Positions 8,464-27,923 of a DNA stretch of 39,394 nucleotides are shown piece after piece. The notes beneath the pieces are model-generated. The model had not been told where the DNA came from and searched no databases. It saw nothing but the letters and a program-made list of their open reading frames with translations. How positions within the stretch are numbered: position 1 is the first letter of the stretch; every line of letters begins with the position of its first letter. The DNA is taken from the IMG/VR virus record IMGVR_UViG_2541047825_000011, positions 1 to 39,394 of that record, one strand, 5' to 3'. A program made the position numbers and the translations under genes. This stretch comes from a virus (lineage: Duplodnaviria; Heunggongvirae; Uroviricota; Caudoviricetes).

Positions 8464-8490
8464 TTAAAAACAAGGCCGCGAAAGCGGCCT
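8464..8490 (-). terminator. Rho-independent terminator of the leftward virion operon
   Basis: AGGCCGC-gaaa-GCGGCCT hairpin with T-run on the minus strand, directly after the lipoprotein gene. Confidence 0.65.
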
Positions 8491-8502
8491 GTGACATGTC
8501 AC
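8491..8502. repeat. 12-bp perfect palindrome GTGACATGTCAC (copy 1 of 3)
   Basis: Exact copies also at 25648..25659 and 27912..27923; all intergenic. Confidence 0.8.
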
Positions 8503-8505
8503 GAC

Positions 8506-8919
8506 TTATAAAGATGACTGATATTTTACAACTCTGTTCATGGCATCTTTTTTCACCGAGCTGATATCAGTTCTTATTTTGGCTTCGTCATTACTGCTTA
8601 TCATGCTATTAATTTTTTGCACTGACATGCCGTTTCTTTCAGCCATTGCACATACAGCAGCATCGTATGAAGAACTCGCTGCGATGGATATCACCTTGTT
8701 ACACTCAAACACAGCACCTTCAGCAATATCAGATGCCGATGAGGCTGGCTTGGTATAAGTCTTGACGTAGTGATCAATACAACTATCCTTCGCCGTCTTG
8801 GCAAGAGAAAAATCCATTTTAACTTTGTCGCAATATGCCTTATCAACACCGTCATAAACATCATAGGATGTCGAGCAAGCGGATATCAAAAATACCGATA
8901 ACAGCAATAATTCCTTCAT
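8506..8919 (-). CDS. Lipoprotein at the end of the virion operon (candidate superinfection-exclusion lipoprotein)
   Basis: Signal peptide with lipobox LISAC; 137 aa; several Cys in the mature part; last gene of the structural operon. Confidence 0.7.
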   Translation of the reverse strand: MKELLLLSVFLISACSTSYDVYDGVDKAYCDKVKMDFSLAKTAKDSCIDHYVKTYTKPASSASDIAEGAVFECNKVISIAASSSYDAAVCAMAERNGMSVQKINSMISSNDEAKIRTDISSVKKDAMNRVVKYQSSL

Positions 8920-8928
8920 TGTTGTTCC

Positions 8929-11403
8929 TTATTGCGGAGTGACATCCTGAGGTCGCCACCAGTATGTCTGGTTAAACTCTTTCTTTGAACGTTGCTCCAT
9001 TTTACGCAAATAGCCTGGTGAAAAATACTCCTGCATCTGGTTAAAGATCATGTGATCGAGAGCCGCCTTTAAGTACCAGAGATTCGCACCTGGCATCAGA
9101 CCTTTCCCCAGCTTAACCAGATCACCACCAGTCTGCTCATTCTTCCCTTCCACAGCATTTAACGGTATGCCCTGAGCAATCTTCACTACGTCATCAACCA
9201 GACCAGCTACCGGGCCAAGCATCGACGCCAACGCGCCGCTTCCGTACCTGGTGTGGTCAGAGAAAAGAAAATCACCATACAACCCTGCACCACCACCTTT
9301 TAAAAATGCATTTATCCAGAATTTAACCATGTTGTCACCGGTCATTTCTTTTGGATTTCTCCCATTAATAAGATCAGTAATCTGCATGGAAAGAGCACCA
9401 AGCATGGTTGTGCTTGCTAAAAACGTTGCTATATATGCTGCACGCCCACCAGCAGACGGCATCCCCATAGCTCTATGCCAGTGACGCATAACTACCGAGA
9501 TAGGGAACGATTTAAACAGGAAAACACTTCTCGTTAATTCACCTTTCCATGTTCCACGCTGAAGACCAGACCCTACGAACATCTGTTCACGTGCGCCCGG
9601 TGTAATAACAGCCATATCAACTTCTTCAGTTACGGCACCGAGCAGTTTACGCATTGCCTCAAATTTCACGCGTTCAGGCTCACCAAGATGTTTAACTGCT
9701 GAATCAGGGATACGCATAATGCTTTCCGGTGTCAGCATCGTATTATTACCGTTCCCCCAGTCCTCCTGTTGCGCCAGCTTCCATACGCTCCAGTCTGTGT
9801 CAGTAATCCCTTTGCTTTTCAGGATACGAAAATCAGAGTCATCGAGGCTACGAAGGTCTGGTGTCCGTGACACTACTTCTCCCAGGCTTCCCATCATGGT
9901 TACGCCATAGGCGCGCTTGTGCGCATCTGACCATGCTGTAAGCCCACTGGCACGCATTACCGCCGTTGCCGCCCAACGAGACACAGACGGCCCCATATTA
10001 TCCATCGCCCAGCGGTTAACGCTGCCAAGTAGAGATTCCATCGCCAGGCCAGCGCGGCGCGCCCGCGCAAGCTCAGTACGGTTCGTTGGGTCCATAGCTT
10101 CAAGCTGGTTGCGAAATAACTGGTTCATTGGAAGGTTGGTAACCTTCGCAGACAGATACATGGTTCCAAGATCAGAGAACGATGACAGCAACGCGGATCC
10201 GAGTCTGCTGGCAACCAGCCAGTTGCGGATATTGTCAGACCATCGCGCGATGTGCGGATTCGCTACAGGCTGTGTTTTTCCGGAAATAAAGTTGTACAAG
10301 TTCTCTGTTTTGTTCGCCAGACGCTCGACGCTACCGGTTTTACTCGGGTTAGCTGTTGCCGTTTCTGCCTTAACCTGATCAAGAAGAGAGCGGAAAACAT
10401 GATCGGGGTTTGGGCCATATGTTTCCACCAGCGCAATATCTTTACTGATACCTTCCAGGTGACCGACCATGATTTCCCATAGAGAGCGATCGCCATAAAG
10501 TTGCTGATATTGCAGATAGGAATCTGCATCTTTGAAATGTATCTGTCGTGATGCATTACCACGGTTAGCACGTGCGCCGGAAATTCGCATTCCGGTATCA
10601 GTAAGCTTATTCAGCCCACCAGTAGCGATCGTGTTATAAGCCTCTCCAAGAAATTCAGACAACTCGGCATCGTTCATCAGTTGTCCATCGGCTCGGGTAT
10701 AATATTTGCGATCCAGCTTACCTATAACATCGCTAACCCACTTATCCTTTGATACCGCCCCAACCTTTTCCATAGAATGATGTTGAGGGATCCCCCAGTT
10801 TTCGAGATAGCCAATGTCACCACCAGCATCATTAAACCGGCGGCGCAGTAGCTCTGTCACTTCTCTCCACGCCTTAGCACCTTTTCTTGCTTTAGCATTG
10901 CCAGTATTTTGCCCTCGCATTTCATATACCAGATCACGCACGCCCGCTTCATCTTCAAACAGGCCAAAAAAGCGAGGATCAACTGCTTCAAATGCCTCCT
11001 GCAATTGACTCAATGCATAATCACGGGTGGCTTTTGTTCTGGATTCAACAGAGAGGAAATTAGATTTACCGTCTGCATTAAAAGCTATAGTACGGTTAAG
11101 AGCGCCAAGTTTCCCATCAGCCCCTTGATAGCTATTGATAAATTTATCCAATCTCTGACGCGCGGCTATAGTGAGAGCCACACGACGTTTCTTTAATGCC
11201 GCTTCTCGCTGTAATTCTTCAGATGCCAATTGTGCTGCTCGATATAGCCGCTCTGATTCGGAAAGTTGTCGCCACGACATCGGGTCATCACGAGCAATGG
11301 AGCGCATATTTCGATAAATGCGGTCTTCAATGTTCTGTATTTCTCGCGCCGTTAACATGCGCTGCGCCGCCTGCTGGACAGCTTGTATACATTCCTGTCT
11401 CAT
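8929..11403 (-). CDS. Internal virion (ejection) protein, large; T7 gp16-like position
   Basis: 824 aa; last large ORF of the virion operon; assignment by size and synteny only. Confidence 0.6.
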   Translation of the reverse strand: MRQECIQAVQQAAQRMLTAREIQNIEDRIYRNMRSIARDDPMSWRQLSESERLYRAAQLASEELQREAALKKRRVALTIAARQRLDKFINSYQGADGKLGALNRTIAFNADGKSNFLSVESRTKATRDYALSQLQEAFEAVDPRFFGLFEDEAGVRDLVYEMRGQNTGNAKARKGAKAWREVTELLRRRFNDAGGDIGYLENWGIPQHHSMEKVGAVSKDKWVSDVIGKLDRKYYTRADGQLMNDAELSEFLGEAYNTIATGGLNKLTDTGMRISGARANRGNASRQIHFKDADSYLQYQQLYGDRSLWEIMVGHLEGISKDIALVETYGPNPDHVFRSLLDQVKAETATANPSKTGSVERLANKTENLYNFISGKTQPVANPHIARWSDNIRNWLVASRLGSALLSSFSDLGTMYLSAKVTNLPMNQLFRNQLEAMDPTNRTELARARRAGLAMESLLGSVNRWAMDNMGPSVSRWAATAVMRASGLTAWSDAHKRAYGVTMMGSLGEVVSRTPDLRSLDDSDFRILKSKGITDTDWSVWKLAQQEDWGNGNNTMLTPESIMRIPDSAVKHLGEPERVKFEAMRKLLGAVTEEVDMAVITPGAREQMFVGSGLQRGTWKGELTRSVFLFKSFPISVVMRHWHRAMGMPSAGGRAAYIATFLASTTMLGALSMQITDLINGRNPKEMTGDNMVKFWINAFLKGGGAGLYGDFLFSDHTRYGSGALASMLGPVAGLVDDVVKIAQGIPLNAVEGKNEQTGGDLVKLGKGLMPGANLWYLKAALDHMIFNQMQEYFSPGYLRKMEQRSKKEFNQTYWWRPQDVTPQ

Positions 11404-11408
11404 TTAAT

Positions 11409-13211
11409 TTAACCTCTCAAGAAACACGCCACAGCGACATCAAACAGGCTGGAATCCTGTATTGCCTGCTCACTTTCCCTGTTCGCTTCATCCAGTACTT
11501 CACGCGCACTGCGCGATTGTGGATTACCATCATCATCCAGCACGGTGATTATCATGTCAGGAGATTCAAGCAGCGAGTCTTCAGCTATACGCAGATCAAT
11601 ATCTCCTGCCGGATCTGCCATCATTTTTTGTTCTGTCTGTTGCAATATCTTACCGGGCTCAAAAGGAGCTACTTCGTCTGGCGTCCTGACCTCTGCTGTT
11701 TTATAGAATGAAACAGCCTGAGCATTAAGTTCACTTTCTGCCTGCTGTCGTCGTGCCAGTTCTGCTCGAGCTTCAAAAAACTGACCGCCAGGCTCGTGCG
11801 GTGCCAACGCGTTACGGGAAAACTCCAGGCGTTCTTGTGCCTGCCGGATTCGTTGATCAATATCGCGAAGTCTGGCCTGTTTATCTGATCGAGCACGAGA
11901 CAAAGCTTTACCGCTACCGGTTGGCTCTTCTGCAAGAATTTGTGCACGCTGTTCAGTGAGATTTTCAATAATTCGTTGGCTATTAGCGATTTCAGACTGG
12001 TAAACCTGTCTATCTCCACGCGGCAAAAGCTGCGCGGCCTGTTCTTCAAGCAACCGATTTTCTATAGCGCGCGCCGTTATTCCATCATCTACAGATGACA
12101 GAGCCTCATTAACTGCCTGAGACAGCAGACTCTTGCGCCCAGGAATTTCACTGAAAGATGCAGACTCAACAATGCTGGCAACGTCTACAGGTCTCCCCTG
12201 GCTAACATCAGACATAGCTTTTCGCAGAGCCTGAATGTGAGAATTACGCGAAAGCACGTTGATCGGCACGCCAGGAGCAATATCAATTTCAGCATGATGA
12301 GCGGCATTCGCCGCCAGTGCAGCATCGATATCAACTGGTGAAAAATTTGGTGTGCTTGTAGACTCGCCGCGAGAGTTAATAAATCTGCCGACACCACCAA
12401 ACGCCACCCCAAGAACAGCATCAATAGCAATTGCCTGTCGATCCAACACATCATACTGGTTAGCCATTTCGCTATAGCCACCATCACGAAGCGTTTTTGC
12501 AGTAAGCCCACGCTGTGCCATACCGAACGCAATATTTGTACCTGCGGCATAGGCAATATCTGGCGTTGCACGTACTGCTGTTGCTGCGGCGCGTCGCACT
12601 GAACTCTCACCCGTCCGTGCAAGCTGAGCCGCCACACCTTCCGCCAGCGCACCACCAGCACGTAACCCGAGGCTCATAGGGATCAGTGTTCCGGCACCAG
12701 CAGTAATGCCCTGCACTAATCCCGCTTCCTGCGCCGTCCTGAAATCAACACCCTGTGCTGTCAGCCGTTCAAACTCAGAAAAACCCTGTAGCGAAGTTAC
12801 CGCCGCTGCACCTCCGACAGGACCACCGAGCGTTGTACCGACAACAGCCTGCCCGCCCATATCGAACAACCCATAAAGAACCTGCCCGGCGGTTCCGGTT
12901 GTCGCGGCATCAGGCGTCAGCCGCTTAACCTGCTGCTCTGCTAGTTTTCTCTGCTCAGCAATGTATGAAACTGAAGTGTCATTGAGCGAGGTGTTTTCGT
13001 TAACAAACTGAGCAATCGGGGATACGATTTTATCCATCCCTGCCCATAGCAACTGATCTGGCTTTGCCACCAGCCCGGAGTACAAACCAGACAATGCCGC
13101 TCCTACAGCATTGTCGAAAAAACCAACATCGCTGTTAAAGCCAACTGGATTTGATGCTGCTTCGTCAAGCTGCTGATTCTGGTTTACTGGATTAAGGCCA
13201 AAGTAACTCAT
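11409..13211 (-). CDS. Internal virion (ejection) protein; T7 gp16-like position
   Basis: 600 aa, Ala/Gly-rich; contiguous with flanking virion genes; function from synteny. Confidence 0.55.
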   Translation of the reverse strand: MSYFGLNPVNQNQQLDEAASNPVGFNSDVGFFDNAVGAALSGLYSGLVAKPDQLLWAGMDKIVSPIAQFVNENTSLNDTSVSYIAEQRKLAEQQVKRLTPDAATTGTAGQVLYGLFDMGGQAVVGTTLGGPVGGAAAVTSLQGFSEFERLTAQGVDFRTAQEAGLVQGITAGAGTLIPMSLGLRAGGALAEGVAAQLARTGESSVRRAAATAVRATPDIAYAAGTNIAFGMAQRGLTAKTLRDGGYSEMANQYDVLDRQAIAIDAVLGVAFGGVGRFINSRGESTSTPNFSPVDIDAALAANAAHHAEIDIAPGVPINVLSRNSHIQALRKAMSDVSQGRPVDVASIVESASFSEIPGRKSLLSQAVNEALSSVDDGITARAIENRLLEEQAAQLLPRGDRQVYQSEIANSQRIIENLTEQRAQILAEEPTGSGKALSRARSDKQARLRDIDQRIRQAQERLEFSRNALAPHEPGGQFFEARAELARRQQAESELNAQAVSFYKTAEVRTPDEVAPFEPGKILQQTEQKMMADPAGDIDLRIAEDSLLESPDMIITVLDDDGNPQSRSAREVLDEANRESEQAIQDSSLFDVAVACFLRG

Positions 13212-15721
13212 TGCGGAATATCTCCGGAGAATCTCTGACGCTTCTGTGTCAGATCAAGAACAACAGGAGAACCATCATCTTTCAGCAGATAACCAGTACC
13301 AAGTTTCACCAGGTACTGACTATCGCCGTAACTTTGCAAACCATACTGACCAGGCGGTGTTTTTATCCCGGTGCCGACAACTTGTTCATTCCAAGCCTGA
13401 TTAACCTGCTTATCGAATTGCTCTGCAGACATTCCCCACGGCAAAAGGACATTCCCCATTCCGTTATAGTCATGCACGCCACCTGTAGCTACGTTAACAG
13501 CCTGTTTCCAGATATCAGTGTCAATTTCGCCTGATATCACGCCTTTTTTCGCCATCACACCAGCGTAATAGTCCTTTGCGATCTCGTATGCCATTGATGC
13601 CCCCTGAGCATCACCAGCAAATGCATCCTTCACCATGTCAGAAAACTCAAGGCGAAGATCAGCATCTTTAGGCATCGGAATACCTTTCGCATCATCAGTA
13701 CCTTTACGAGCCGCCGCGCCAGCAAGAATTGTCTGCGCAGCGGTTTCAGGAGACACGGAAACATCCGGATTAAACCAGTTTTTTTCTGCCAAAATACCAC
13801 CAGGCTTGTCCATCAGTATCCCGGCAACGGCAGCAGATGGAGCGTTGGCACTGATCTGCTGTAGTGCTGACATATACACCTGCCCACCACCAGTGCTCTG
13901 CCTGATGGTATCGAGATATGCTGCCTGTTGGGAAACTGGAGCATCACGAAAGAAAACACCGATCTGATTGGCCTCGTCTTTGGAAAAGAACGTCAGTGGA
14001 GTGCCATATGACTTAGCAAGATCACTGACCTGAGCGGCACGCAAGGCAACGCTCTGTCCAAAGTTATCCTTATTGCTCATGTCGATAGGCTTTGCCTGTC
14101 CGGAGGCAAGAGAGAACTGCACAGGATCCGACTGCCGCTGCTTTATCACCTGATTTGCAGCCGAAACAACGTTGTCATAAAGAGCTGCGCGAGACGCATA
14201 ACCCTCCCCTGTCTCACCGGTATCCGGGCGTAATTGCTCAACATATGCTGTAATGCTGCTTGTCGGCATGTTGCGGAAAGAGCCTATATACTGTCCGGCG
14301 ATTTGCGTATTTCTGAACTCGGTATATCGCAGGTTTCCTTCTCTGACTCCATAAGCTGCAATAAAATCAGCCTCACCAGGTGGGTTAGGAAATTCAACGC
14401 CACGCATATACGCAGCTGTCGCATCGCGAACCTGGCTGTCAATCATCGTTTTATATTCAGCCTGCTGCTGCCGACGCAGTTGATCAGCCTGTCGCATAAA
14501 ACTTGCCTGCGCCTCAGGAGATGCCGCATCGAATGCTGCATTACCGGTATAGCGTTTGGTGTTGGTTGGAATTGTTGATAAACCAAGTGCTGCACTGACA
14601 CCAGCAGTTAACTGCTGATCACTGTATGGCTGGCTACCGTTCTCATGATGGATAATGGCTGCACAAAGCGCCTTCAGGGTATCAGGATTAGATGCATCGA
14701 GAGGCTCATCAGCAGAAACGCCAAGTTGTTCGCACACTGCTTTGATATACGACATAGTGTCATTTTTATCAGTAGGCGGTGCCCAGCGATTAATTATCTC
14801 GCTGACGGTATCAATACCCTGCCTCTGATACGACATCAGGTTCCGCCCTAATGCACGAATCCCGTGTTCAGGTGTTTCGAATTTAGCAAATCGACCATCA
14901 TCACCGGTCTGGCCTACCCACGGATTAGTTTTGCTGTATTCGAGATTTCCTGGGTTATTGTTGCGTATGCCGCGGGCACGCTCGGAAGAGTCACTATCTG
15001 CTACAGCACGGCGAGCTCCAGCAGCAGTATCACTTAACTCGCCATTACTTTGGATGAATGCGGTCGCATTGTTTGCCGACCACTGGGACAATGCGGCATC
15101 AGCAACCTTCTCTTTAAACTCGATTTTCTTGGCCTGTATTTGCTCGTCGCTCCAGCCATGCGCAATGCCGTAATCCTCAATTTGCTGGAAAGTTTGCTTA
15201 TTAGCCAATACGTATGCGGCGTTGTCGCCATACAATGCTGCGGCATTTTTACCATTGTTCAGCAGCGTCGCCTGAAACTGGCCTTCTTCGTAGGCATTTA
15301 TTTGCCCTATCTCGTGCCGCCCGGCCTGCGTAGTGAACTGAATACGCTGCTGCTGCGCCTGCTGCATGAAAGCATTACGAGCTTGTTCATCCGGCAGCGA
15401 CATAGCCAGTTGCTCGACCTGGGCATCAAACTGCTGCGTATACTCCTGACCTTTTCCAATAGCATTTTTCCCTTTCAAGTTAAGCAAACCTGTTTCAGGG
15501 TTATTCAGCAGATCGCTACTTATCTGGCTTAAGCTAAGAGAAGCATCCTGAGCCATAGCAACATTCGCACGCTGTTTTGCCTGCGCAATAATACCTGCAT
15601 ATTGCTCTGCAACATCGCCAAGTACATCACCGACATTTGGTGTCTGAAACGATGAGAATCCCTGCGTCGAAATCCCTCTGCTCTGAACCTGACGTCCCGA
15701 TGTTGTTGGTACAACTGGCAT
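13208..15721 (-). CDS. Internal virion protein; T7 gp15-like position
   Basis: 837 aa; contains a conserved-looking block RNNNPGNLEYS...RWAPPTDKNDT of unknown function; overlaps the downstream gene start. Confidence 0.55.
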   Translation of the reverse strand: MPVVPTTSGRQVQSRGISTQGFSSFQTPNVGDVLGDVAEQYAGIIAQAKQRANVAMAQDASLSLSQISSDLLNNPETGLLNLKGKNAIGKGQEYTQQFDAQVEQLAMSLPDEQARNAFMQQAQQQRIQFTTQAGRHEIGQINAYEEGQFQATLLNNGKNAAALYGDNAAYVLANKQTFQQIEDYGIAHGWSDEQIQAKKIEFKEKVADAALSQWSANNATAFIQSNGELSDTAAGARRAVADSDSSERARGIRNNNPGNLEYSKTNPWVGQTGDDGRFAKFETPEHGIRALGRNLMSYQRQGIDTVSEIINRWAPPTDKNDTMSYIKAVCEQLGVSADEPLDASNPDTLKALCAAIIHHENGSQPYSDQQLTAGVSAALGLSTIPTNTKRYTGNAAFDAASPEAQASFMRQADQLRRQQQAEYKTMIDSQVRDATAAYMRGVEFPNPPGEADFIAAYGVREGNLRYTEFRNTQIAGQYIGSFRNMPTSSITAYVEQLRPDTGETGEGYASRAALYDNVVSAANQVIKQRQSDPVQFSLASGQAKPIDMSNKDNFGQSVALRAAQVSDLAKSYGTPLTFFSKDEANQIGVFFRDAPVSQQAAYLDTIRQSTGGGQVYMSALQQISANAPSAAVAGILMDKPGGILAEKNWFNPDVSVSPETAAQTILAGAAARKGTDDAKGIPMPKDADLRLEFSDMVKDAFAGDAQGASMAYEIAKDYYAGVMAKKGVISGEIDTDIWKQAVNVATGGVHDYNGMGNVLLPWGMSAEQFDKQVNQAWNEQVVGTGIKTPPGQYGLQSYGDSQYLVKLGTGYLLKDDGSPVVLDLTQKRQRFSGDIPQ

Positions 15722-15733
15722 CTTATTATCCCC

Positions 15734-16273
15734 TTATCGACCGGTTGGAGTGCCAACAGCAGCAGAAATCGGCGCAGCCTTCTGAGAGAACGGGCTCCAC
15801 GTTCCGCCGCCCATCTGGTATGCACCGTATGCTTTTAGTGGTGCCGTTAACAAAGTGCTGGTCATCGATGATTTAGCAGCCGACTGAGCAGCAGCCCCCT
15901 GTGCCTGAGCATTCATTCCCTGAACCTGATACCCATATGCCTCACGCTGAGCATTATTCACTGTCGTTAACGCATCAAGAGTACCGAACTGAGCATTATC
16001 CGCAAAAACGTCAAGAGCTGTTCCGCTACTTAATTCCGCACCGGTAGCCCCCATAGTGGCCGCCGTAGTGCCTGAGCGTTGACGCATTTCACGACGACGC
16101 TGATCCGCTTCAATATTCCCACGATTGATTGAATCCTGTGCCTGAGCTTCAGCAATTTCAGCATTCCGATCAGCTATGGCTGACTGGTATTTTGCCTGCT
16201 TGCTCTGGCTGTACATTGACGCGGCTGTGGATGCCACTGTGACGGCAACCAAAGCGATGGCTGGGTTACACAT
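15734..16273 (-). CDS. Internal virion protein; T7 gp14-like position
   Basis: 179 aa; N-terminal hydrophobic helix then Ala/Gln-rich region. Confidence 0.5.
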   Translation of the reverse strand: MCNPAIALVAVTVASTAASMYSQSKQAKYQSAIADRNAEIAEAQAQDSINRGNIEADQRRREMRQRSGTTAATMGATGAELSSGTALDVFADNAQFGTLDALTTVNNAQREAYGYQVQGMNAQAQGAAAQSAAKSSMTSTLLTAPLKAYGAYQMGGGTWSPFSQKAAPISAAVGTPTGR

Positions 16274-19208: not shown

Positions 19209-19813
19209 CAGGACAACCTCGCAATGGTAAACTCGTCAACCGGTGGCTGTGGTTCCTGTGATTCATTCTGGCTATGCGAACCAGCACTAAGAATCACGCG
19301 ATTGTACATATTGAGGGAAAACGTACCGAGGTCTGCATTCCCAGTCAGCGCCATGTTAATAGCTGCCGCAAGACGCCAGGCCAGCGCCTCCATAAAAATG
19401 GCATCAAACATGTTCACATCTGTAACACGAGAGACATACTTGAGCCATGCCTGCGGCTGGTCTGTGTAGATCAACTTTCCTGTTCCGTTGGCGTCTGCAC
19501 CAACTTCGTACTGAACACGCATTGCTGCTGTTGGATTGCGTACACCAGGAAGCATAATTTCAGTAATGCGCAGACAATCGGACGGGTACTGGTATGCGTA
19601 TTCCCAGTCTGGCGGCGGATTGTTCGTATCTGCAAGCGCCACGCGTTTGGTAGCAAAGTTCCAGTCAAAATCAGAAAGCACAGCATCACGGCAGGCCTCA
19701 AAGTGCAGCGAACATTCCCCCGCTTCCTTACTGGCTTCCGTCAGGCTGTTAATGCTGCGGCTGTTGCCAATATTGGACAGCGCACGATTACAGATCTCTA
19801 CTACAGAGGCCAT
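19208..19813 (-). CDS. Tail tubular protein A-like (adaptor)
   Basis: 201 aa, T7 gp11-like size; N-terminal EICNRALSNIGNSRSINSL pattern. Confidence 0.6.
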   Translation of the reverse strand: MASVVEICNRALSNIGNSRSINSLTEASKEAGECSLHFEACRDAVLSDFDWNFATKRVALADTNNPPPDWEYAYQYPSDCLRITEIMLPGVRNPTAAMRVQYEVGADANGTGKLIYTDQPQAWLKYVSRVTDVNMFDAIFMEALAWRLAAAINMALTGNADLGTFSLNMYNRVILSAGSHSQNESQEPQPPVDEFTIARLS

Positions 19814-20142: not shown

Positions 20143-20186
20143 TCCTGCAATAAAGGGGCCGAAGCCCCTTGTCTGATTCGCGAGGC

Positions 20187-20522
20187 TTACACGCCCAGTT
20201 CTTTACGCTTATCTGCGATCTTCTCGCGGAGCGTTTCGGCTTTGGCGTTATGGTGTGGCTTCTCGTTAAAGAGCAATTCGTACTCTTCACGGAGCTTATC
20301 CAGTTCACCATCATCTGACACATCGTTGATGATTTTGGTGCTGGTTGCTGCCATAGACACCTTTCCTGCTACCTTTGCTTTTGCCTGTCTGGCTGCATCG
20401 TTAACAGGTTCCAGTGCGCTACCAGGCTCACCTTCGTATTCGATTTCTGCCCCCTCCGGCCACAGTGTGTTATGGATATGAGAGAGGCGCAGAACGCGGT
20501 ATCTTGGTTTCTCACCTGACAT
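20187..20522 (-). CDS. Hypothetical virion protein
   Basis: Track ORF trimmed to the ATG at 20522 with AAGGTGA upstream; acidic helical protein. Confidence 0.5.
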   Translation of the reverse strand: MSGEKPRYRVLRLSHIHNTLWPEGAEIEYEGEPGSALEPVNDAARQAKAKVAGKVSMAATSTKIINDVSDDGELDKLREEYELLFNEKPHHNAKAETLREKIADKRKELGV

Positions 20523-20532
20523 CGAAATCACC

Positions 20533-20970
20533 TTAACCAGTTACTTTTGAGCGGATCGGGTACGGCGTATTGGCATCAACATCAAGATTGATACCAGCAG
20601 TGAATTCGCCAGCCGTTAGTGGGCCAGTTGCGACGGAGTAGTTAACACGCAGATATCGCTGAACACCGGCAGGAACCTTTGCAGAAACAACTCGTTTACC
20701 TGCTGTCAGGGCGGTCTTTGCCAGTGCGCCACTATCATAAATAGTGGTCCATGAGCTGTTATTCTCACTCGTCTGCAACTGGATGTTTACAGTTGCATCA
20801 CCGCTTGCCGCGGCGGCTGTGTTAACCAGCGCCCAAAACTCAAGCGGGTAACCCACGCCGATATCACGACGTTTTCCGTCAATTGGACCGAGATCGATTA
20901 CGTCAGTAGAAGCCGCGGTATTCGTAACCGCCTGAGCTTCGGAGAACATCAACAGTTTGTCGGTGATCAT
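20533..20970 (-). CDS. Hypothetical capsid-associated protein (possible decoration protein)
   Basis: 145 aa, immediately downstream of the capsid gene; beta-rich composition. Confidence 0.5.
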   Translation of the reverse strand: MITDKLLMFSEAQAVTNTAASTDVIDLGPIDGKRRDIGVGYPLEFWALVNTAAAASGDATVNIQLQTSENNSSWTTIYDSGALAKTALTAGKRVVSAKVPAGVQRYLRVNYSVATGPLTAGEFTAGINLDVDANTPYPIRSKVTG

Positions 20971-21021
20971 CTTCTTTCTCCATTAGTGGGCCTGTTGCGG
21001 CCCACAGGTTAATAACAGGCG

Positions 21022-22014
21022 TTACACCACGCGGGCTTCTGTTTCCAGAAGCGCATCAGTTTCACGAATTGGTACACCACGGAATGAAGTCCACCACTCG
21101 CCTTCTGTCTCTTTTACGCTGATCGCCAGAGATGTTTTCTCCAGAGATTGCAGATCAAGAGCCTGGCCTACAGTGCGGTTCATGTAGAACACTGGGCGCC
21201 CCATGCCACGGTTTGGAATGCGATGCAGTGCTTTAACCATCAACTTCGCAATATTTGCGGCAGAGGAAGGTTCTGAAAGATTGCTGACATCGATGTTTGC
21301 AATGCGAACAACATAACGCCAGTCACGCAGAGCAAGTCCGTTGTCCCATTTGTAATGGGTGCGATAGCCTTCGTACTTGCCGCCATTAGCATCTTCCAGT
21401 GTCACCTGGCCTTTATCTTCCATCTGGATGCCAGCCTTCTGCCCTTTCGGGAAGATGCCATGCACGGTGTTTTCGCCCCACACCACTAACCAGATTGAGG
21501 TGTTATCTGTACCCGTGCCACCAGCATCAATGATGTTCTGAGCATTACCCGCAGACAGGCTGGAATAGCGGGAGGACAGTCCCATAAACTGCTGAGGGTT
21601 AACGCTGGAATCACCATAAAACAGCGTCTGCGCCATCTGCTGATTCATCGCTTCAATAAATGCGCGGTCTTCAGACAGGCGGAATTCAGCGGTATTGCCG
21701 TTCAGATCAGCCAGTGACTTATCGACTTCAGCATAGGTTTCCAGCATGCCAACGGAATCGGTTACCTGCACTGTGGTTGATTTGCTTGGCTGTACGCCAT
21801 AGTTCAGCAAACGCCAGGTAGCTGAAGGTAAACCAGAACGAATGGTGGTTCGGTGTCCGGTAGGAAGGTTCCCTTCGACAAAAGGCATATCCTGAAGGAT
21901 CGGGTTAGTTTGACCGAGAAGCTCGATAATCTTATCGACTTTCCCGTTTGGATCGACGCGCTTACCCCAGTCAGCCAGCGTTAGCGCAGTTAAGCCTTTA
22001 ACAGCCATTGTCAT
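21022..22014 (-). CDS. Major capsid protein
   Basis: 330 aa; directly follows the scaffold gene; stem-loop GTGGGCC-tgttgc-GGCCCAC downstream. Confidence 0.8.
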   Translation of the reverse strand: MTMAVKGLTALTLADWGKRVDPNGKVDKIIELLGQTNPILQDMPFVEGNLPTGHRTTIRSGLPSATWRLLNYGVQPSKSTTVQVTDSVGMLETYAEVDKSLADLNGNTAEFRLSEDRAFIEAMNQQMAQTLFYGDSSVNPQQFMGLSSRYSSLSAGNAQNIIDAGGTGTDNTSIWLVVWGENTVHGIFPKGQKAGIQMEDKGQVTLEDANGGKYEGYRTHYKWDNGLALRDWRYVVRIANIDVSNLSEPSSAANIAKLMVKALHRIPNRGMGRPVFYMNRTVGQALDLQSLEKTSLAISVKETEGEWWTSFRGVPIRETDALLETEARVV

Positions 22015-22022
22015 TTCCTCTC

Positions 22023-22724
22023 TTATTTGCCATAGAGCACTTCGGCCGCACTACGCTGGCCTTCATTACCACCGGTGACCATGCCATCTTCAGACATCGC
22101 CTTTCCGATTTTCACGAACGTTTTGACCAGATCAGGGTGATTACCCAGCCCGGTGGTGTTCAGATATTCTTTGAGTTCAGGTGTCCCGAACTGGTCAAGC
22201 GCACGCTGTGCGGCGCTAAGGTTAGAAATCAACTTGTCGCCACCGATTTCTTTGTCAGCTTTTACATCCGCAGCCCACTGCTCGGTTGTTTTCTGCCAGG
22301 CTTCTGCCTGGCGCTGCTGAACACCTGCCAGAATCTTCGGATAAGCATCAACCAGCTTTTGCGCTTGCTCGTTGGTCAGGTTAAGTTCTCGCGCCACCGG
22401 CTCGAATTCCTTCAACGCTTCTGTATCCAGCTCTACGCCTTCGGCAGCCTGAAACTCGTACTTCTCAGGCGCACCCTCTGGTTTATCGCCGTCCTTTTTT
22501 TCATCCTGCTTATCGTTTTCAGGCTTTTTGTCATCAGCAGGTTTATCGCCATCAGCAACAGGTTGTGGCTTATCACCTTCCTGTTGTGATGGATCACCAA
22601 CTGGAGCAGGGTTATCACCTGCAGGCGCTGACGGTTCTGACGCAGCCGGAGCTGCTCCACCATCGACTGGTTGCTCATTGCAAAGACGGCGATACAGCAA
22701 ACGCTCAAATAAATTCATGATCAC
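22023..22724 (-). CDS. Scaffolding protein
   Basis: 233 aa; strongly acidic/Lys-rich low-complexity N-half (DGDKPADDKKPENDKQDEKKDGDKPEG), helical C-half; upstream of the capsid gene. Confidence 0.7.
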   Translation of the reverse strand: MIMNLFERLLYRRLCNEQPVDGGAAPAASEPSAPAGDNPAPVGDPSQQEGDKPQPVADGDKPADDKKPENDKQDEKKDGDKPEGAPEKYEFQAAEGVELDTEALKEFEPVARELNLTNEQAQKLVDAYPKILAGVQQRQAEAWQKTTEQWAADVKADKEIGGDKLISNLSAAQRALDQFGTPELKEYLNTTGLGNHPDLVKTFVKIGKAMSEDGMVTGGNEGQRSAAEVLYGK

Positions 22725-23017
22725 TCCTGTTCACTGGCCTCTTTGGCCATCTTCAAATACTGTTCAGGGCAATGCGCCATAACGCGCTGAAACAGTTCCA
22801 GCGCCAGATTGCGTTGCCCCTCATTAAATGCCATTGCCATAGCATCCATCGGAGAGATAGCGGAAAACACACGGCCTTTCTCCAGCACCGACCAGACAAC
22901 GCGACGCCCCTGTTCACTGCTCATGACAAAGCGAATGTCATCAATTTCACGCTGTGCCATGTCACGTTGCTTACGGGCGTTTTCTTCTTTCAGTTGATCG
23001 TCTTCGTAATCTGTCAT
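22721..23017 (-). CDS. Hypothetical small head-module protein
   Basis: 98 aa; overlaps the portal stop and scaffold start. Confidence 0.5.
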   Translation of the reverse strand: MTDYEDDQLKEENARKQRDMAQREIDDIRFVMSSEQGRRVVWSVLEKGRVFSAISPMDAMAMAFNEGQRNLALELFQRVMAHCPEQYLKMAKEASEQE

Positions 23018-24693
23018 TGTGATTGCCCACCCTGACCACTAACTGCATTCGCCATAGCTGACAAAACACTCGGATCCGAAGTTTTAGCTTCGCTTAGCGT
23101 CTTGGCACCCTGTGCCGCCGCCATCCCCATCGCCATCATTTGTTGCTGCTGTTGTTGCTGTGCCCGTTGCTGGCGAGCCTGCTCAACCTGTTCCTGCGGA
23201 ACAATGACGGTTGGAGACACTCCGGACATATCAGCGAATGCATCGATCGCCTGATCAACGTTGAGTTTGTCGAGAGCTTCTGGTTTCGCTTGCGCAAGTT
23301 GACCAATGAAGTTGACCGTAGACGCCAGACTGGACAGGCCGATAGACTTCTGCGCCTGAGCCATGACGGAAATGTATTCGACCTTCAGGGGCATACCTTC
23401 CATCGCGTCAGGCGGTGGCGGCAGCATGTTTTTACGCACCATCATCGAGAAAGCGCGGTCAATGAGAGGATTAAGACATTCGTCGTTCAGACGCTCCAGA
23501 ACCGGCCCCAACATCAGAAGTTTTTCTTCTTTCATTTCGATCACCGCTTCAACAGGCATCGAGCGGGTATTGATGTTCTGCAACATCATGAACAGATCGA
23601 CAAAGTAGGCGCTGTTAATGATTTGACGAGTGTCCTGAATGTCTGCCACCAAATCTGCTGTACTGGGGTTAACCAGATAAGCAGGTCTGAAACCATCCTG
23701 ACCAGTAATCTGATCGATATACGTGATGTCGCCAGGAAGAAGGGAGGCACGCTGATTCTTGAGGGAAGTCGGAGCAACCATCGGCGGATTGGTGGCTTTA
23801 TCAATCAACTGCGACTTGCGCTTCTGGAGAAGCTGCAATGCCTTAACAGGTCCAAGCGCCAGCATACCCGGGCATGATGATCCATAAACATCTTCGCCGT
23901 TAACTTCCCAGCGCGGAGCCATAATTGGAAACTCATCGAATCCGGACTCACGCAACAACTTGTCGTTATCGCCACCAACCTCGTAATAAACCGATTTGAA
24001 TGGCTTGTTCTTGCTATCCAGCTTCGATGTATCGCGGTCAATGTTCGGGTAAACCGAATGCATCACTTCGATCCACTTCTCGTAGGTGCCGCTTTCCCAC
24101 ATGCTTTTTACGGATTCGCTGACGTTATTTAGCCCGAACTCCTGAACAAGCTGACGAACAGTCATAGAGAACTTGCGAAAACAGGTGTCAACACTGCCAC
24201 GAGGTGAGTTAGCCAGGTAGTAACTGCCTATCGGGAATGGCATTGTGCGAATGATGTCCTCGTCATCCTCCAGCACTGCCATTGCACCAGTGCTGTATGT
24301 GCCGAGGCTTCCGTATAACTGCGGCAGCGACTGATAGAGATTCGACTTATTGAACATATCGTTCATGCGGTTCTGCACCGCCTCAAGCCACAACTTAACA
24401 GGGCCATAATCCATCATTTCAGGATCTGGCGTAGCCAGGCGAAACCACGGACGCGCGGGGCTTGTGATGCCTGACATCATGCCGCTGGCGAGAGTGCGCG
24501 CCGCCATAGTCCCGGTCGAATCAATAATGCGTGTATTGCGTCGATCGTTACGGTTGACCTCAGAAGTCAGAAAGCGGGAACCACGCGGGTTGATGTAATC
24601 ACTCAACTCGCGCCAGTGCGGCTCGAACGACTGACGCTCGCTTTCAAGTTGTGCGAACTGTTTGTTCAATCGCTCTTTAGTTGTTTCCGCCAT
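23014..24693 (-). CDS. Portal protein
   Basis: 559 aa; Gln/Ala-rich C-terminal tail; position between terminase and scaffold. Confidence 0.8.
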   Translation of the reverse strand: MAETTKERLNKQFAQLESERQSFEPHWRELSDYINPRGSRFLTSEVNRNDRRNTRIIDSTGTMAARTLASGMMSGITSPARPWFRLATPDPEMMDYGPVKLWLEAVQNRMNDMFNKSNLYQSLPQLYGSLGTYSTGAMAVLEDDEDIIRTMPFPIGSYYLANSPRGSVDTCFRKFSMTVRQLVQEFGLNNVSESVKSMWESGTYEKWIEVMHSVYPNIDRDTSKLDSKNKPFKSVYYEVGGDNDKLLRESGFDEFPIMAPRWEVNGEDVYGSSCPGMLALGPVKALQLLQKRKSQLIDKATNPPMVAPTSLKNQRASLLPGDITYIDQITGQDGFRPAYLVNPSTADLVADIQDTRQIINSAYFVDLFMMLQNINTRSMPVEAVIEMKEEKLLMLGPVLERLNDECLNPLIDRAFSMMVRKNMLPPPPDAMEGMPLKVEYISVMAQAQKSIGLSSLASTVNFIGQLAQAKPEALDKLNVDQAIDAFADMSGVSPTVIVPQEQVEQARQQRAQQQQQQQMMAMGMAAAQGAKTLSEAKTSDPSVLSAMANAVSGQGGQSQ

Positions 24694-24707
24694 TTCAATG
24701 ACTCCGG

Positions 24708-24914
24708 TTACTGACCAAGTAGCGTTTTACCGCTGGTATTAGCGGTTGATGTGTCGCCCTGAGAACCGGTAAGCAGCGTAGAACTACGACCAGCAGCAGC
24801 GCGACGGCGACGAGTTTCTTCGTCGCGGGCATCAACAACGGCGGCATCCTGCTCCTGTGGTGCTGCCTGAACTTCTGGTGTTGCAGGCACTGATGGTGAG
24901 CTACCCATGCACAT
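24708..24914 (-). CDS. Small acidic protein upstream of portal
   Basis: 68 aa with GGAG upstream; preferred over the overlapping 79-aa ORF 24695..24934. Confidence 0.35.
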   Translation of the reverse strand: MCMGSSPSVPATPEVQAAPQEQDAAVVDARDEETRRRRAAAGRSSTLLTGSQGDTSTANTSGKTLLGQ

Positions 24915-24982
24915 ATCAATGACTCCGTACGCAATTAAATTATTACCAATTTAACCACATATGATTTATTTATCGTAGGCAG

Positions 24983-25020
24983 TTGACATTTAACGCACAA
25001 ATTATTACCTTTCAGGTAAC
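24983..25020 (+). promoter_or_regulatory. Candidate promoter (-35 TTGACA) with overlapping operator-like palindrome ATTACC-TTTCA-GGTAAC
   Basis: TTGACA at 24983..24988; palindrome at 25004..25020 where a -10 would lie; oriented toward the tRNA. Confidence 0.4.
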
Positions 25021-25340
25021 CAAAGAGTTCATTCCGGTTACTAACCTGACTGGCTTGTCGTTAAATTGAACAGGTGGAGTGAGCTTTTATTTTGAGCAGT
25101 ACGGCGTATGGCACATGCGCCGATAGCGGTCTGGATACGTTTAAGGGGCACCCTCCCTTGCTCGGGCAACGAACCAGGTAGCCGGAATGTGCAAGTCGAG
25201 CGGTTTTATTCCGCGCACGGGGATTCACCATCCTGGCGATTCGGTGTGACGCCTCGGAAGAGACGAGGGTACAACGATGAGAGCATTTATGAAGCCGCGA
25301 CAAAGTGTGGCGTCTTAACAGGCTAAGTGCTCTCAGCGTT

Positions 25341-25417
25341 GTGGCATTAGCTCAGTTGGACAGAGCAACCGCCTTCTAAGCGGTTGGTCGCAGGTTCGAA
25401 TCCTGCATGCCACGCCA
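25341..25417 (+). tRNA. tRNA-Arg (anticodon UCU)
   Basis: 77 nt cloverleaf by hand: acceptor GTGGCAT/ATGCCAC, D-arm GCTC..GAGC, anticodon stem ACCGC/GCGGT with loop CTTCTAA, T-arm GCAGG-TTCGAAT-CCTGC, encoded CCA; differs from host argU in acceptor and anticodon stems. Confidence 0.9.
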
Positions 25418-25460
25418 GAATCACGCCTAAGGACCGTGATGCCAGAAGTTCCAGGGGCTT

Positions 25461-25502
25461 GGCGGTGATGGTTTCCCTTGAAGGACTATCACCGCCCTTT
25501 TT
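25461..25502 (+). terminator. Hairpin with T-run downstream of tRNA
   Basis: GGCGGTGAT ... ATCACCGCC 9-bp stem with long loop, then CTTTTT. Confidence 0.45.
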
Positions 25503-25580
25503 ACAGCAGGACGCCATTGCGATGACTTCATGCTGTAAACCCGTACAGCCACGGAAGGCAAAACTCATTGCTTCCAGTTC

Positions 25581-25604
25581 GCCCGGTTCGCCGGGCATTT
25601 TTTT
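25581..25604 (+). terminator. Rho-independent terminator
   Basis: GCCCGG-ttcg-CCGGGC followed by ATTTTTTT. Confidence 0.75.
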
Positions 25605-25647
25605 AAGGTGTGAATCATGAAATACGAATTCGATGGATTTTGATGTC

Positions 25648-25659
25648 GTGACATGTCAC
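25648..25659. repeat. 12-bp perfect palindrome GTGACATGTCAC (copy 2 of 3)
   Basis: About 75 bp beyond the terL stop, at the right edge of the tRNA island. Confidence 0.8.
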
Positions 25660-25663
25660 AAAC

Positions 25664-25690
25664 AGCCAGCCGATGAGCTGGCTTTGTTTT
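25664..25690 (+). terminator. Hairpin plus T-run
   Basis: AGCCAGC-cgatga-GCTGGCT followed by TTGTTTT. Confidence 0.5.
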
Positions 25691-25733
25691 ATCATCATCA
25701 GAGGATATCAACGATATTATCCCCTCAAGCGGA

Positions 25734-27209
25734 TTAAGCATAGGGATCGTAATCTGTGATGGCCTTGCCTTGCTGGTTCTGCTGCCCGGGAATTCGCAGA
25801 CGCTTCGACACAGGGAACGCAAACGTCAGCAGTAGCGCATCGCCTTTACCAGGCGAACGCCCAAGCCGCTCCTTGATATCTTCCTTCGGTTCGATAACGA
25901 TTTTACCGTCCACTCGAACTTTGTACTCTGCCGCCGACAGATCGTCCGCTGTTTCCTGGTCATCCAGCATCCCGCCCAGCCTCAGCCATGTCTTGCATGA
26001 GTTGAACATCTCCCCACGCTTGTTGAGCATCTGCTGGTCAGTAGACGCGCCACCGAACGGAACAAGTTGCCATGTGCGCCCCCAACCGTCACCGATTGAC
26101 TTCAGACCGGTACCGTAACCAAAGTCGATGAACACTGCGTCAGCCTGATACAGGTCTTCAAAGTCAGCAATACGCTTCGCCATAATCAGATCGTCGGTAG
26201 TCTTGTTGCCAGTCCACAGCACCTTACTGTGTAGCCCCTGCCGCAGGTATATCACCGCGTCATCAACGCCTGAATATGCCGGGTCAACACCGATTATCAC
26301 CGGAGCATGCGCCACCTGCGCAGCGGTTACCACCCGTTTCATTGCCTCATCAGTAAGACCGGTAGGGATAAACTGCAATTCAGATGCATCAGGGAATATG
26401 CCGCGCACACGGATTTTAACGAAGTCGCTGTCTTCCCCGTAGTCATCAACCCATTTCTGCAACTGCTGTTTGTTAGTGCCTTCCACCGTCCGGCTGTCAA
26501 TCTGCGCAGTTTTCCAGCGGTGTTTATATTTGCGGAAACATTCACGGAATCGCCCGGTATTACGCGTCGGGTTTCCGAACGCCACCCAGATAATCTCAGT
26601 GTCTTCGTCCGTTAGCGCACCTTCGGCAACTTCCCACACCAGATCCGCAATGTTCGACGCTTCATCGAATACCACGATGATGCGTTTGCGCTCGTTGTGT
26701 AGTCCGGCGAATGCCTCAGTGTTGTGCTCAGACCAGGGGATTGCGTCAGCTCGCCACCGCTTGTCGTGCCCAGGATCATTGCTGTACATCGCGGTAGCGG
26801 TACAGGTAAACCAGTCTTTCGTGATAGCAAGGTTCGACCACTTGATAATTTCCGGCCAGGTCTTCGTTCGTAGCTGGTTGTCGGTGTTGGCGGTCACCAC
26901 GACCTTACAATCCTCGCAAGTGGACATGCCCCAGTTGATCAGCATTGAGATGAATGCGGATTTACCAATACCGTGACCAGAAGCGCGTGCCAGCATAAGC
27001 GGCTGATAGCGCGTCTCTGGATTCTGCAGGTAATCACGTATCTCTCGGAACGCATCAGCCTGCCACTGACGTGGGCCGGTGGCATGTGCCAGTTCAGTCC
27101 CCTCTTCCCCCCACGGGAACGCATAGAGGGCATAGCCAAGCGGATCGTGAGTGAACCCTGCAATATCCTCGATCAACTGCTCTTCAGGAGATAACGCTGT
27201 ATCTGTCAC
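25734..27209 (-). CDS. Terminase large subunit
   Basis: 491 aa; P-loop-like SGHGIGKS, Walker B-like IIVVFDEASN, C-terminal nuclease-like region; overlaps terS stop. Confidence 0.9.
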   Translation of the reverse strand: MTDTALSPEEQLIEDIAGFTHDPLGYALYAFPWGEEGTELAHATGPRQWQADAFREIRDYLQNPETRYQPLMLARASGHGIGKSAFISMLINWGMSTCEDCKVVVTANTDNQLRTKTWPEIIKWSNLAITKDWFTCTATAMYSNDPGHDKRWRADAIPWSEHNTEAFAGLHNERKRIIVVFDEASNIADLVWEVAEGALTDEDTEIIWVAFGNPTRNTGRFRECFRKYKHRWKTAQIDSRTVEGTNKQQLQKWVDDYGEDSDFVKIRVRGIFPDASELQFIPTGLTDEAMKRVVTAAQVAHAPVIIGVDPAYSGVDDAVIYLRQGLHSKVLWTGNKTTDDLIMAKRIADFEDLYQADAVFIDFGYGTGLKSIGDGWGRTWQLVPFGGASTDQQMLNKRGEMFNSCKTWLRLGGMLDDQETADDLSAAEYKVRVDGKIVIEPKEDIKERLGRSPGKGDALLLTFAFPVSKRLRIPGQQNQQGKAITDYDPYA

Positions 27210-27802
27210 TGATTACCATCCTGACGTTCTTTGAGTCGCTTCCTGGCTGCCGCTATGCGATCAGCAATTGTCACATTCACATTAACATCCAGGCGTTCTT
27301 TGAACGCGTTGACGTCGACGTGCTTACCAATCAGTTCGAGGTTCTTCACCTTGTCAGGCCATTTAATTTTTTTGAGGATTGTCTCTATCGAATCCTCGTT
27401 CATGTTCATGATGGTCGATGACAGATCAAAGCCACTAAGCGTAGTGCGCCAGATTTTCGGCCACTCGCGGATTGGCTTAAGGCTCCCATCGTCGTTGAGG
27501 ATGTCGATCACGTCCATCTGGTCGATCTCCACTAGGCGCATGAGAACGTAATCAGCACTGACGCGCATTCGTTTGTTGCGCTCCTCCATCAACTCGGCAA
27601 TCCGTTTTTGAATGCGTTCATCGCGCATCATGACACTGGCTTTAACTGCCGCTGTATTTGGGGAGAATCCTGCGTTAATCGCTGCCTGAGTCTGGTTTTC
27701 AGGCGTTTTGATGTATGACTGGCAATAAGCCTCCTGCATTGCTGTTAGTGGCTTAAATTGCGTTGATTTGCGTTTATAGGTTTTAGGTTCAGCAGGCATC
27801 AT
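27206..27802 (-). CDS. Terminase small subunit
   Basis: Track ORF 27206..27898 trimmed to the ATG pair at 27802/27799 because a hairpin with T-run and direct repeats occupy 27803..27898. Confidence 0.6.
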   Translation of the reverse strand: MMPAEPKTYKRKSTQFKPLTAMQEAYCQSYIKTPENQTQAAINAGFSPNTAAVKASVMMRDERIQKRIAELMEERNKRMRVSADYVLMRLVEIDQMDVIDILNDDGSLKPIREWPKIWRTTLSGFDLSSTIMNMNEDSIETILKKIKWPDKVKNLELIGKHVDVNAFKERLDVNVNVTIADRIAAARKRLKERQDGNQ

Positions 27803-27809
27803 AACCACC

Positions 27810-27838
27810 GTGGTAATAGTTACCGTTGTGGTAATAGT
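27810..27838. repeat. Two 11-bp direct repeats GTGGTAATAGT just upstream of terS
   Basis: Copies at 27810..27820 and 27828..27838; each carries a TTACC half-site on the coding strand. Confidence 0.55.
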
Positions 27839-27844
27839 ACCATG

Positions 27845-27871
27845 CAAAATAAAGCCGCCATAGTTGGCGGC
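27845..27871 (-). terminator. Terminator-like hairpin in the terS leader
   Basis: GCCGCCA-tagt-TGGCGGC; T-rich run follows on the minus strand. Confidence 0.45.
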
Positions 27872-27911
27872 AGTATTCAAAACCATCAAATTCATCATGC
27901 ATAATCTACTC

Positions 27912-27923
27912 GTGACATGTCAC
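27912..27923. repeat. 12-bp perfect palindrome GTGACATGTCAC (copy 3 of 3)
   Basis: Overlaps the stop codon of gene 27920..28261, upstream of terS. Confidence 0.8.

Follow-up and report, generated by a model that had tools for sequence, protein, structure and literature searches.

Why would a tailed phage carry the same perfect 12-bp palindrome exactly three times, each time at a junction between blocks of genes? The question is raised by the IMG/VR virus record IMGVR_UViG_2541047825_000011 (Caudoviricetes), whose positions 1 to 39,394 form the stretch of 39,394 nucleotides that we call the window, and by the palindrome GTGACATGTCAC within it. The original prediction, made from the letters of the DNA, had placed one copy at a gene stop, one beyond the terL stop, and one at the end of the virion operon, and these contexts proved to be correct. 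An exact search of the full window found the three copies and no others; we refer to them as sites a, b, and c. As shown below, GTGACATGTCAC is almost certainly the operator of the protein whose gene ends within site a. The sites and this gene are as follows.

27912 to 27923, no strand assigned: site a, GTGACATGTCAC, overlapping the TGA stop codon (27920 to 27922) of the gene for a ribbon-helix-helix (RHH) and zinc-ribbon protein, at the end of the early-right operon
25648 to 25659, no strand assigned: site b, GTGACATGTCAC, 74 nt past the terL stop and 4 nt from a hairpin at 25664 to 25683, at the junction with a plus-strand tRNA island
8491 to 8502, no strand assigned: site c, GTGACATGTCAC, 3 nt past the stop of the last open reading frame (ORF) of the virion operon and adjoining a minus-strand terminator
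27920 to 28258, minus strand: gene for the presumed binder, 112 amino acids, last gene of the early-right operon

The claim that such a triple is not a product of chance was borne out. With independent, identically distributed bases, 0.0023 copies are expected; none of 100 dinucleotide-preserving shuffles of the window held any copy of GTGACATGTCAC, and none of 300 second-order Markov simulations gave a palindromic 12-mer with three copies. When the two strands are collapsed, no 12-mer family other than GTGACATGTCAC reaches three copies in the window. Positions 5 to 8 of the palindrome read CATG.

In the terS-terL region, identity is 97% to phiV10 and to Escherichia coli O157 typing phages 9 and 10, and about 80% to Salmonella phage epsilon15. 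This identity makes the window an epsilon15/phiV10-like temperate podophage (Uetakevirus), whose late genes are on the minus strand. The comparison with related phages for which the original prediction had called found the palindrome at equivalent places. Six diverse relatives from four host genera were compared (phiV10, epsilon15, Tyrion, PAT1, BUCT711, and SPN9TCW). Of these, epsilon15, Tyrion (Enterobacter), and SPN9TCW have the exact 12-mer at each of the three positions. Site c is exact in all six relatives, though the gene before it differs among them. Site a is exact in five, at the same position and in the same register (epsilon15, Tyrion, PAT1, BUCT711, and SPN9TCW), and has one mismatch in phiV10. 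Site b is present in five, with one mismatch in PAT1, and is missing in Klebsiella phage BUCT711, which keeps sites a and c. The phiV10 record (NC_007804.2; locus L001 in our collection) is cut inside site a at 39101, and the copy that runs across the junction has the one mismatch, GTGACATGTTAC. A physical genome end at this point was considered and rejected, since the record simply ends at the gp55 stop by annotation convention. GTGACATGTTAC and a second site-a variant, GTGAAATGTCAC, were also found in a few IMG/VR relatives.

The close relatives in IMG/VR give larger numbers. The copy over the stop codon, site a, is exact in 75 of 80 and has one mismatch in 4 of 80. For site b, 50 of 75 have the exact 12-mer, about 10 have a copy with one mismatch, and 12 lack it. 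The sequences flanking the sites diverge among relatives while the positions and the sequence of the sites are kept, which indicates that GTGACATGTCAC is under selection. A one-mismatch search of the window, proposed beforehand, gave a single extra copy, at 22954 inside coding sequence; it has no counterpart in epsilon15 and for this reason is treated as a probable chance occurrence.

A ribbon-helix-helix protein coupled to the site

The 112-amino-acid product of the gene at 27920 to 28258 matches PHROG 536 ("transcriptional regulator") with E = 1.6e-53, its residues 2 to 112 aligning with positions 2 to 114 of the 115 in the profile. Searches of Pfam, NCBIfam, PADLOC, and PDB sequences with this protein returned nothing informative, and the Pfam RHH models match just 1 or 2 of 54 family members, weakly. 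An AlphaFold2 model of the monomer, built from an alignment of 54 diverse homologs, reached a predicted local distance difference test score (pLDDT) of 90.8 and has a strand-helix-helix arrangement. From the N terminus there are a basic helix (residues 5 to 18), an extended segment (19 to 29, with a strand at about 22 to 28), two helices (30 to 42 and 52 to 74), a zinc ribbon, and a short C-terminal helix. The cysteines of the ribbon are C79, C82, C91/C93, and C99, of which C79 and C82 are invariant and C99 is nearly so. The model thus gives the PHROG 536 protein an RHH fold with an N-terminal basic helix and a C-terminal zinc ribbon. The part of interest for recognition is the following.

28205 to 28246, minus strand: conserved N-terminal basic helix, protein residues 5 to 18, AAERKAAQRARQAA, with the pattern AERK..QR.R

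The helix AAERKAAQRARQAA looks like the basic region of bZIP proteins, and the core of the half-site, TGAC, is the half-site of the cyclic AMP response element (TGACGTCA); both are resemblances only. Two other ideas about the Cys-rich protein were rejected. An HNH or cos function does not agree with the fold, which is RHH plus zinc ribbon. The C-terminal helix with the CxxC...C region has weak matches to TraR and YbiI when profiles are compared with PDB (E of 0.08 to 0.1). A kinship with the DksA/TraR C4 zinc finger was nevertheless dismissed, as the E values are below threshold, Pfam zf-dskA_traR does not match, the second Cys pair is not CxxC, and such proteins are absent from both fold searches.

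Many prophages of E. coli, Salmonella, Klebsiella, Citrobacter, Yersinia, Vibrio, and Aeromonas carry the family, and in every phage type examined its gene sits in an early operon. Distant homologs, with 30 to 45% identity, were found in N15-like, P2-like, Vibrio, and metagenomic phages, and in most of them GTGAC-NN-GTCAC lies over or close to the stop of the homolog's gene, or at another place in the vicinity. Of the 11 lineages examined, 6 have the gene ending inside the site. Where a distant homolog has the site over its stop, the TGA is formed by bases 2 to 4 of the site and the two-base spacing is the same, as seen in N15 gp46 (GTGACTGGTCAC), in a Yersinia P2-like phage (GTGACGCGTCAC), and in two metagenomic phages (L063 and L066; GTGACAGGTCAC). 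One lambdoid phage has the site 6 nt past the stop of the family gene.

The coupling is most complete in the N15-like loci in IMG/VR, all 49 of which have the site over the stop codon. In addition to this copy there is one in repA, conserved across N15-like contigs, and in some loci a third, at a distance of about 10 kb; the total is 110 sites in 913 kb, compared with 0.87 expected. N15 itself (L010) has two further copies, at 28550 and 33237 (GTGACCAGTCAC / GTGACTGGTCAC); gene 33 and a terminator flank one of them, and the other lies within repA. In Vibrio phages, at a protein identity of 31%, the site occurs three times in 36 kb, with one copy immediately upstream of terS, and locus L064 has two tandem sites between convergent genes. 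A second phage group has the gene stop and two sites 22 bp apart, followed by a terminator, a promoter with a repressor operator, and terS. Taken over 11 lineage-representative loci (240 kb), GTGAC-N2-GTCAC has 23 copies, compared with a mean of 0.34 for composition-matched half-sites, and the spacer is two bases in 23 copies and three bases in 1. We counted 16 of the 23 as lying between genes or across a stop codon. No site was found within 10 kb of the longer homolog in a Mu-like prophage. The L070/L071 lineage (protein P0238, 34% identity) lacks the two-base-spaced site and has 11-bp forms, GTGAC-T-GTCAC and GTGAC-C-GTCAC, at 13222 and 16056, upstream of lysis genes and of terS. These one-base centers may represent a shift in spacing specificity.

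The site was also searched for without reference to any gene. We scanned viral contigs for two sites lying 5 to 30 nt apart, an event with a chance of about 2.4e-11 per position, and obtained at least 120 loci (L152 to L271). Among the tandem-site matches listed, 27 encode the family, and in 18 of these 27 the site starts 3 nt before the end of the stop codon. A strict regular expression for the AERK motif found almost nothing near tandem sites, and a hidden Markov model (HMM) of residues 1 to 46 was used instead. The HMM added 9 loci among the matches listed, and all its matches with E ≤ 0.01 lie within 300 bp of sites. The proteins of these 9 loci are small RHH proteins that have no zinc ribbon and share the AERK..R.R helix (hhalign probabilities of 38 to 92%), and their tandem sites lie upstream of their own genes, as in classical autorepressors.

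Because gene and site are coupled across lineages and the gene-blind scan recovers the same N-terminal module beside the sites, we assign GTGACATGTCAC to the product of 27920 to 28258 as its operator with near certainty, and we infer that the predicted module of basic helix and RHH recognizes GTGAC-N2-GTCAC.

Possible roles for a bound protein at the ends of transcription units

The following features are needed to describe the layout around the three sites.

27854 to 27871, minus strand: intrinsic terminator, GCCGCCAACTATGGCGGC then TTTATTTT, separating the early-right operon from terS, 40 nt downstream of site a
25664 to 25683, no strand assigned: hairpin beside site b, with a good T-tract on the plus strand and a weak one (TGTTTGTG) in the terL direction
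25341 to 25683, plus strand: tRNA-Arg(TCT) island, with the tRNA opposite to the late-gene strand and terminator-like hairpins at 25461 to 25496, 25581 to 25596, and 25664 to 25683
8473 to 8490, minus strand: intrinsic terminator of the virion operon, AGGCCGCTTTCGCGGCCT then TGTTTTT, beginning one base after site c

Read in the late-gene (minus-strand) direction, the early-right operon, with its last gene at 27920 to 28258, is followed by site a, the terminator at 27871 to 27854, and two TTACC-N5-GGTAA operators with a possible extended -10 element, so that site a is set apart from terS by the terminator and repressor operators. Then come terS, terL (stop at 25734), the hairpin at 25683 to 25664, site b, and the plus-strand tRNA-Arg island with its three plus-strand terminators. 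The last part consists of a repressor operator at 25005, the virion operon (last ORF ending at 8506), site c, and the terminator at 8490 to 8473. Thus each of three successive codirectional transcription units has one of the sites at its 3' end, with an intrinsic-terminator hairpin beside the site. The terminator at 27854 to 27871 is kept in relatives and is annotated as such in epsilon15, and the one at 8473 to 8490 is kept in all relatives examined. With its good plus-strand T-tract, the hairpin at 25664 to 25683 would terminate convergent transcripts of the tRNA island.

In our best explanation, GTGACATGTCAC is the operator of the 112-amino-acid protein and acts as a boundary or roadblock at the ends of units; we give this explanation as a whole a probability of about 0.5. 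A symmetric dimer would sit on each palindrome, its RHH core together with the N-terminal basic helix (AERK..QR.R) reading the invariant GTGAC half-sites, with two variable bases between them. The protein would be made from the early-right operon and would then occupy the sites at the 3' ends of the early-right, terS-terL, and virion units. There, bound dimers would stop or slow RNA polymerase and so reinforce termination, and they would keep convergent transcription from the island out of the late operons. As site a covers the protein's own stop codon, binding would limit its own full-length mRNA and the read-through to terS. That binding blocks transcription, as opposed to activating it or bridging DNA, is our best guess, favored because no other reading assigns a direct function to sites b and c.

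Several observations weigh against this explanation. The binder is assigned from co-occurrence and fold, and about 84 of the 120 tandem-site loci among the matches listed have no recognizable family member; other proteins or functions may use GTGAC-NN-GTCAC. Among the matches listed, the tandem-site loci range in GC fraction from 0.39 to 0.75, and many of those with no recognizable family member have extra half-sites (such as CCTGTCAC), a fixed 24-bp spacing, or a position near a contig end. Site b is degenerate or missing in about one-third of close relatives; at least this site is dispensable. The adjacency to terminators was rejected as a family-wide rule because it holds in Uetakevirus only; elsewhere the sites abut the ribosome-binding site (RBS) of the next gene, precede terS, or lie in coding sequence (N15 repA), and the wider family therefore does not force a roadblock. 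Even within the window there is no single geometry, as the site comes before the hairpin at a and c and after it at b. Finally, a roadblock before terS (K233, L067) would mean that an early protein represses packaging genes, an odd role.

The palindrome had originally been proposed as the site of a dimeric late regulator, with the adjacent Cys-rich protein as a possible binder. This choice of binder now has strong comparative support from the RHH fold, the gene-site coupling, and the gene-blind scan, while the "late" part did not hold up as well. In its most explicit form, the protein at site a would recruit RNA polymerase to a weak late promoter before terS (a putative extended -10 element with no -35), in the manner of lambda Q or a class I activator, with sites b and c as auxiliary sites. 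We regard this as possible but unlikely. Like Q in lambda, the gene stands right before the late operon, being the final one of the early-right operon, and the order of gene, site or sites, terminator, promoter, and terS is kept in two phage groups. In lambda, the established arrangement for late control consists of Q, the promoter PR', a short 6S leader, and the terminator tR', and the likeness lies in a regulator gene with its own DNA site and a strong terminator before the late genes. A conserved TGnTACTAT or TGnTATTAT element, at 27834 to 27842 on the minus strand of the window, comes just after the terminator and overlaps the first TTACC-N5-GGTAA repressor operator. By our count from the putative -10, the site centers lie near -90 in the window, near -73 in epsilon15, and near -70 and -92 in the two-site group. 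However, the 17-bp difference between the distances of -73.5 and -90.5 does not correspond to whole helical turns, and sites b and c are conserved with no promoter in reach. Homologs of the protein are found in phages with late regulators of their own (N15 gp40 and Mu-like Mor), and the sites in K233, L067, and N15 are 1 to 10 nt from an RBS, which leaves no room for a promoter. A promoter at site a itself was rejected: GTGACA-18-CATGAT scores 9 of 12, nothing comparable exists at b or c, and the -35-like GTGACA needs an AT center and is lost where the center differs. Unlike Q, the phage protein has no homology to Q families and no conserved promoter at its site, and the late operon seems to have its own repressor-controlled promoter past the terminator. 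A terminator-associated hairpin had been suggested as well, and here the position beside terminators was confirmed for Uetakevirus, whereas an RNA hairpin is unlikely. An element that works as RNA, either as a small hairpin or as a protein-bound site affecting 3'-end stability, processing, or translation of the next cistron, agrees with the finding that every site is in transcribed 3' or intercistronic sequence, that in several lineages the site ends 1 to 10 nt before an RBS, and that the palindrome yields the same RNA from both strands at convergent junctions. Yet five base pairs cannot close on a loop of two bases, still less on the one-base loop of L070, and a stem of four pairs is very weak. 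With a center of two bases, and of one in that lineage, the element is better read as a double-stranded DNA site. Its invariant half-sites, free center, and strict spacing are the signature of a dimer on duplex DNA, and the associated protein has a DNA-binding RHH fold, so we consider an RNA role highly improbable.

The sites might instead be architectural, with dimers at the three sites pairing as MatP does at matS, looping the DNA into insulated late-unit domains or acting on host SMC-type complexes, which we judge to be quite unlikely. The resemblance to matS, whose 13-bp consensus is GTGAC[AG]N[TC]GTCAC (PMC3603311, PMC3116907), includes identical half-sites, a degenerate center, an RHH dimer (MatP recognition involves RHH; PMC12756933), and few sites scattered over the replicon. 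The taxonomic range is also the same, covered here by phages of Enterobacterales, Vibrio, and Aeromonas. In the window the sites stand on either side of terS-terL and of the virion operon; each phage genome has two to four, often away from promoters, and contacts between dimers could be made through the C-terminal zinc ribbon. On the other side, the phage site is 12 bp with a two-base center, not 13 bp, as the spacer counts given above show. Vibrio phage K233 (L011) has one 13-mer that fits the true matS consensus (GTGACACCGTCAC), at 19491 at the stop of a small ORF, in addition to three 12-bp sites. Unlike MatP, the protein is phage-encoded, has the N-terminal basic helix and the C-terminal zinc ribbon, and has one site on its own stop. 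A MatP homolog was rejected because the hhalign probability is 0.2% and the tripartite layout of four-helix bundle, RHH, and coiled coil is not found, the AlphaFold2 model having neither the bundle nor the coiled coil. Tandem sites 22 to 28 bp apart resemble ordinary cooperative operators. A phage-borne miniature matS-like system is a long shot: its 12-bp sites, with the half-sites of host matS but made orthogonal by the shorter spacing, would mark off the late units, and bridging dimers or MukBEF-type action would fold the replicating genome into insulated loops; if true, it would be an undescribed layer of genome organization in many temperate phages of Enterobacterales, Vibrio, and Aeromonas. 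The remaining proposals are a site for a host factor (MatP or SlmA), a recombination or module-exchange joint, and a pac signal, and we take this group to be very unlikely. SlmA is a TetR-fold protein. Its binding-site consensus, GTGAGTACTCAC (PMC3116907), is also a 12-bp palindrome with outer GTGA/TCAC, and the outer four bases of our 12-mer equal those of both matS and the SlmA site; positions 5 to 8 are CATG, not GTAC, and the SlmA consensus was rejected. Against host MatP, the spacing is 12 bp and not the 13 bp of matS, and true matS motifs are avoided in prophages (PMC3603311). The distribution of the site also follows the phage gene and not just the host taxon. Directly beside sites b and c the similarity between relatives breaks off, as a module joint would have it, and sites a and b flank terS-terL, with Vibrio siphophages having a site just upstream of terS. 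However, position is the only support for recombination or packaging, N15-like phages keep a copy inside the conserved repA coding sequence, which is not a module joint, and the terminase genes of N15 and P2-like phages lack a site in their vicinity.

Comparison with known operators and repressor sites in the window

Among the closest known systems are the classical RHH repressors, such as Arc, Mnt, CopG, MetJ, omega, and the MazE/ParD antitoxins. They share the fold and the short palindromic operators; in addition, related lineages have tandem sites about two helical turns apart, and the small relatives have sites upstream of their own genes. In contrast, PHROG 536 genes have the site over the stop codon, at their 3' end, instead of in the promoter; further sites are at operon ends beside terminators, and the protein has an extra zinc ribbon. 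In 2000, Abo and colleagues reportedly found that LacI bound at O3, at the 3' end of lacI, truncates the lacI mRNA and leads to tagging by transfer-messenger RNA. The likeness would be an operator that overlaps the end of the binder's own gene and autoregulation by roadblock, and for the phage protein it is offered purely as an analogy.

An RHH protein with a short palindromic operator is thus known as a kind. New are the zinc-ribbon RHH family and the recognition code predicted for it, the placement of an operator across the stop codon of the regulator itself, the further operators at operon 3' ends beside terminators, and matS half-sites with a spacing one base shorter. In full-text literature searches for the 12-mer and six center variants, nothing was found in a phage context and no earlier description of the element; the ZX5 paper and the late-gene literature on Uetakevirus gave nothing further on the 12-mer, and the motif is not annotated in the GenBank records of epsilon15 and phiV10. 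PHROG 536, annotated so far as "transcriptional regulator" or "hypothetical," gains a predicted target, GTGAC-NN-GTCAC, and a predicted recognition module, the AERK helix plus RHH, and a well-studied phage group (epsilon15, phiV10, and SPN1S) now has a defined set of sites. The placement is atypical for RHH regulators and could reveal protein-assisted termination or insulation in phage genomes; the interest would rise much if the sites prove to organize or insulate the phage genome. The likeness to matS raises the question of whether phage and host DNA organizers share a recognition code and whether cross-talk between them is avoided.

A separate class of sites in the window is TTACC-N5-GGTAA, the same class as the repressor sites annotated in epsilon15. 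It has 10 exact copies, all intergenic or in promoters (6178, 6558, 7706, 25005, 27820, 31238, 31300, 33581, 34293, and 34355), and one copy with one mismatch at 27802. None of its copies coincides with the 12-mer, and the 12-mer was rejected as an operator of the Uetakevirus repressor (Rep). As these operators also precede terS and the virion operon, the repressor appears to control the late units directly. The mechanically called terS ORF, with its start at 27898, runs through a terminator; terS probably starts at the ATG at 27802, as in epsilon15. The gene before site c is the following.

8506 to 8919, minus strand: last ORF of the virion operon, 137 amino acids, PHROG 8691, lineage-specific

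Other small genes take the place of this ORF in phiV10 and epsilon15, and its product has a weak linker-histone (winged-helix) match (E = 0.0011), below the Pfam cutoff. A conserved partner gene downstream of the PHROG 536 family was also considered and rejected, as the downstream genes fall in unrelated PHROGs. The window has a second class of palindrome, GATAA-NN-TTATC, with three copies at 11137, 19092, and 21925, all within virion genes.

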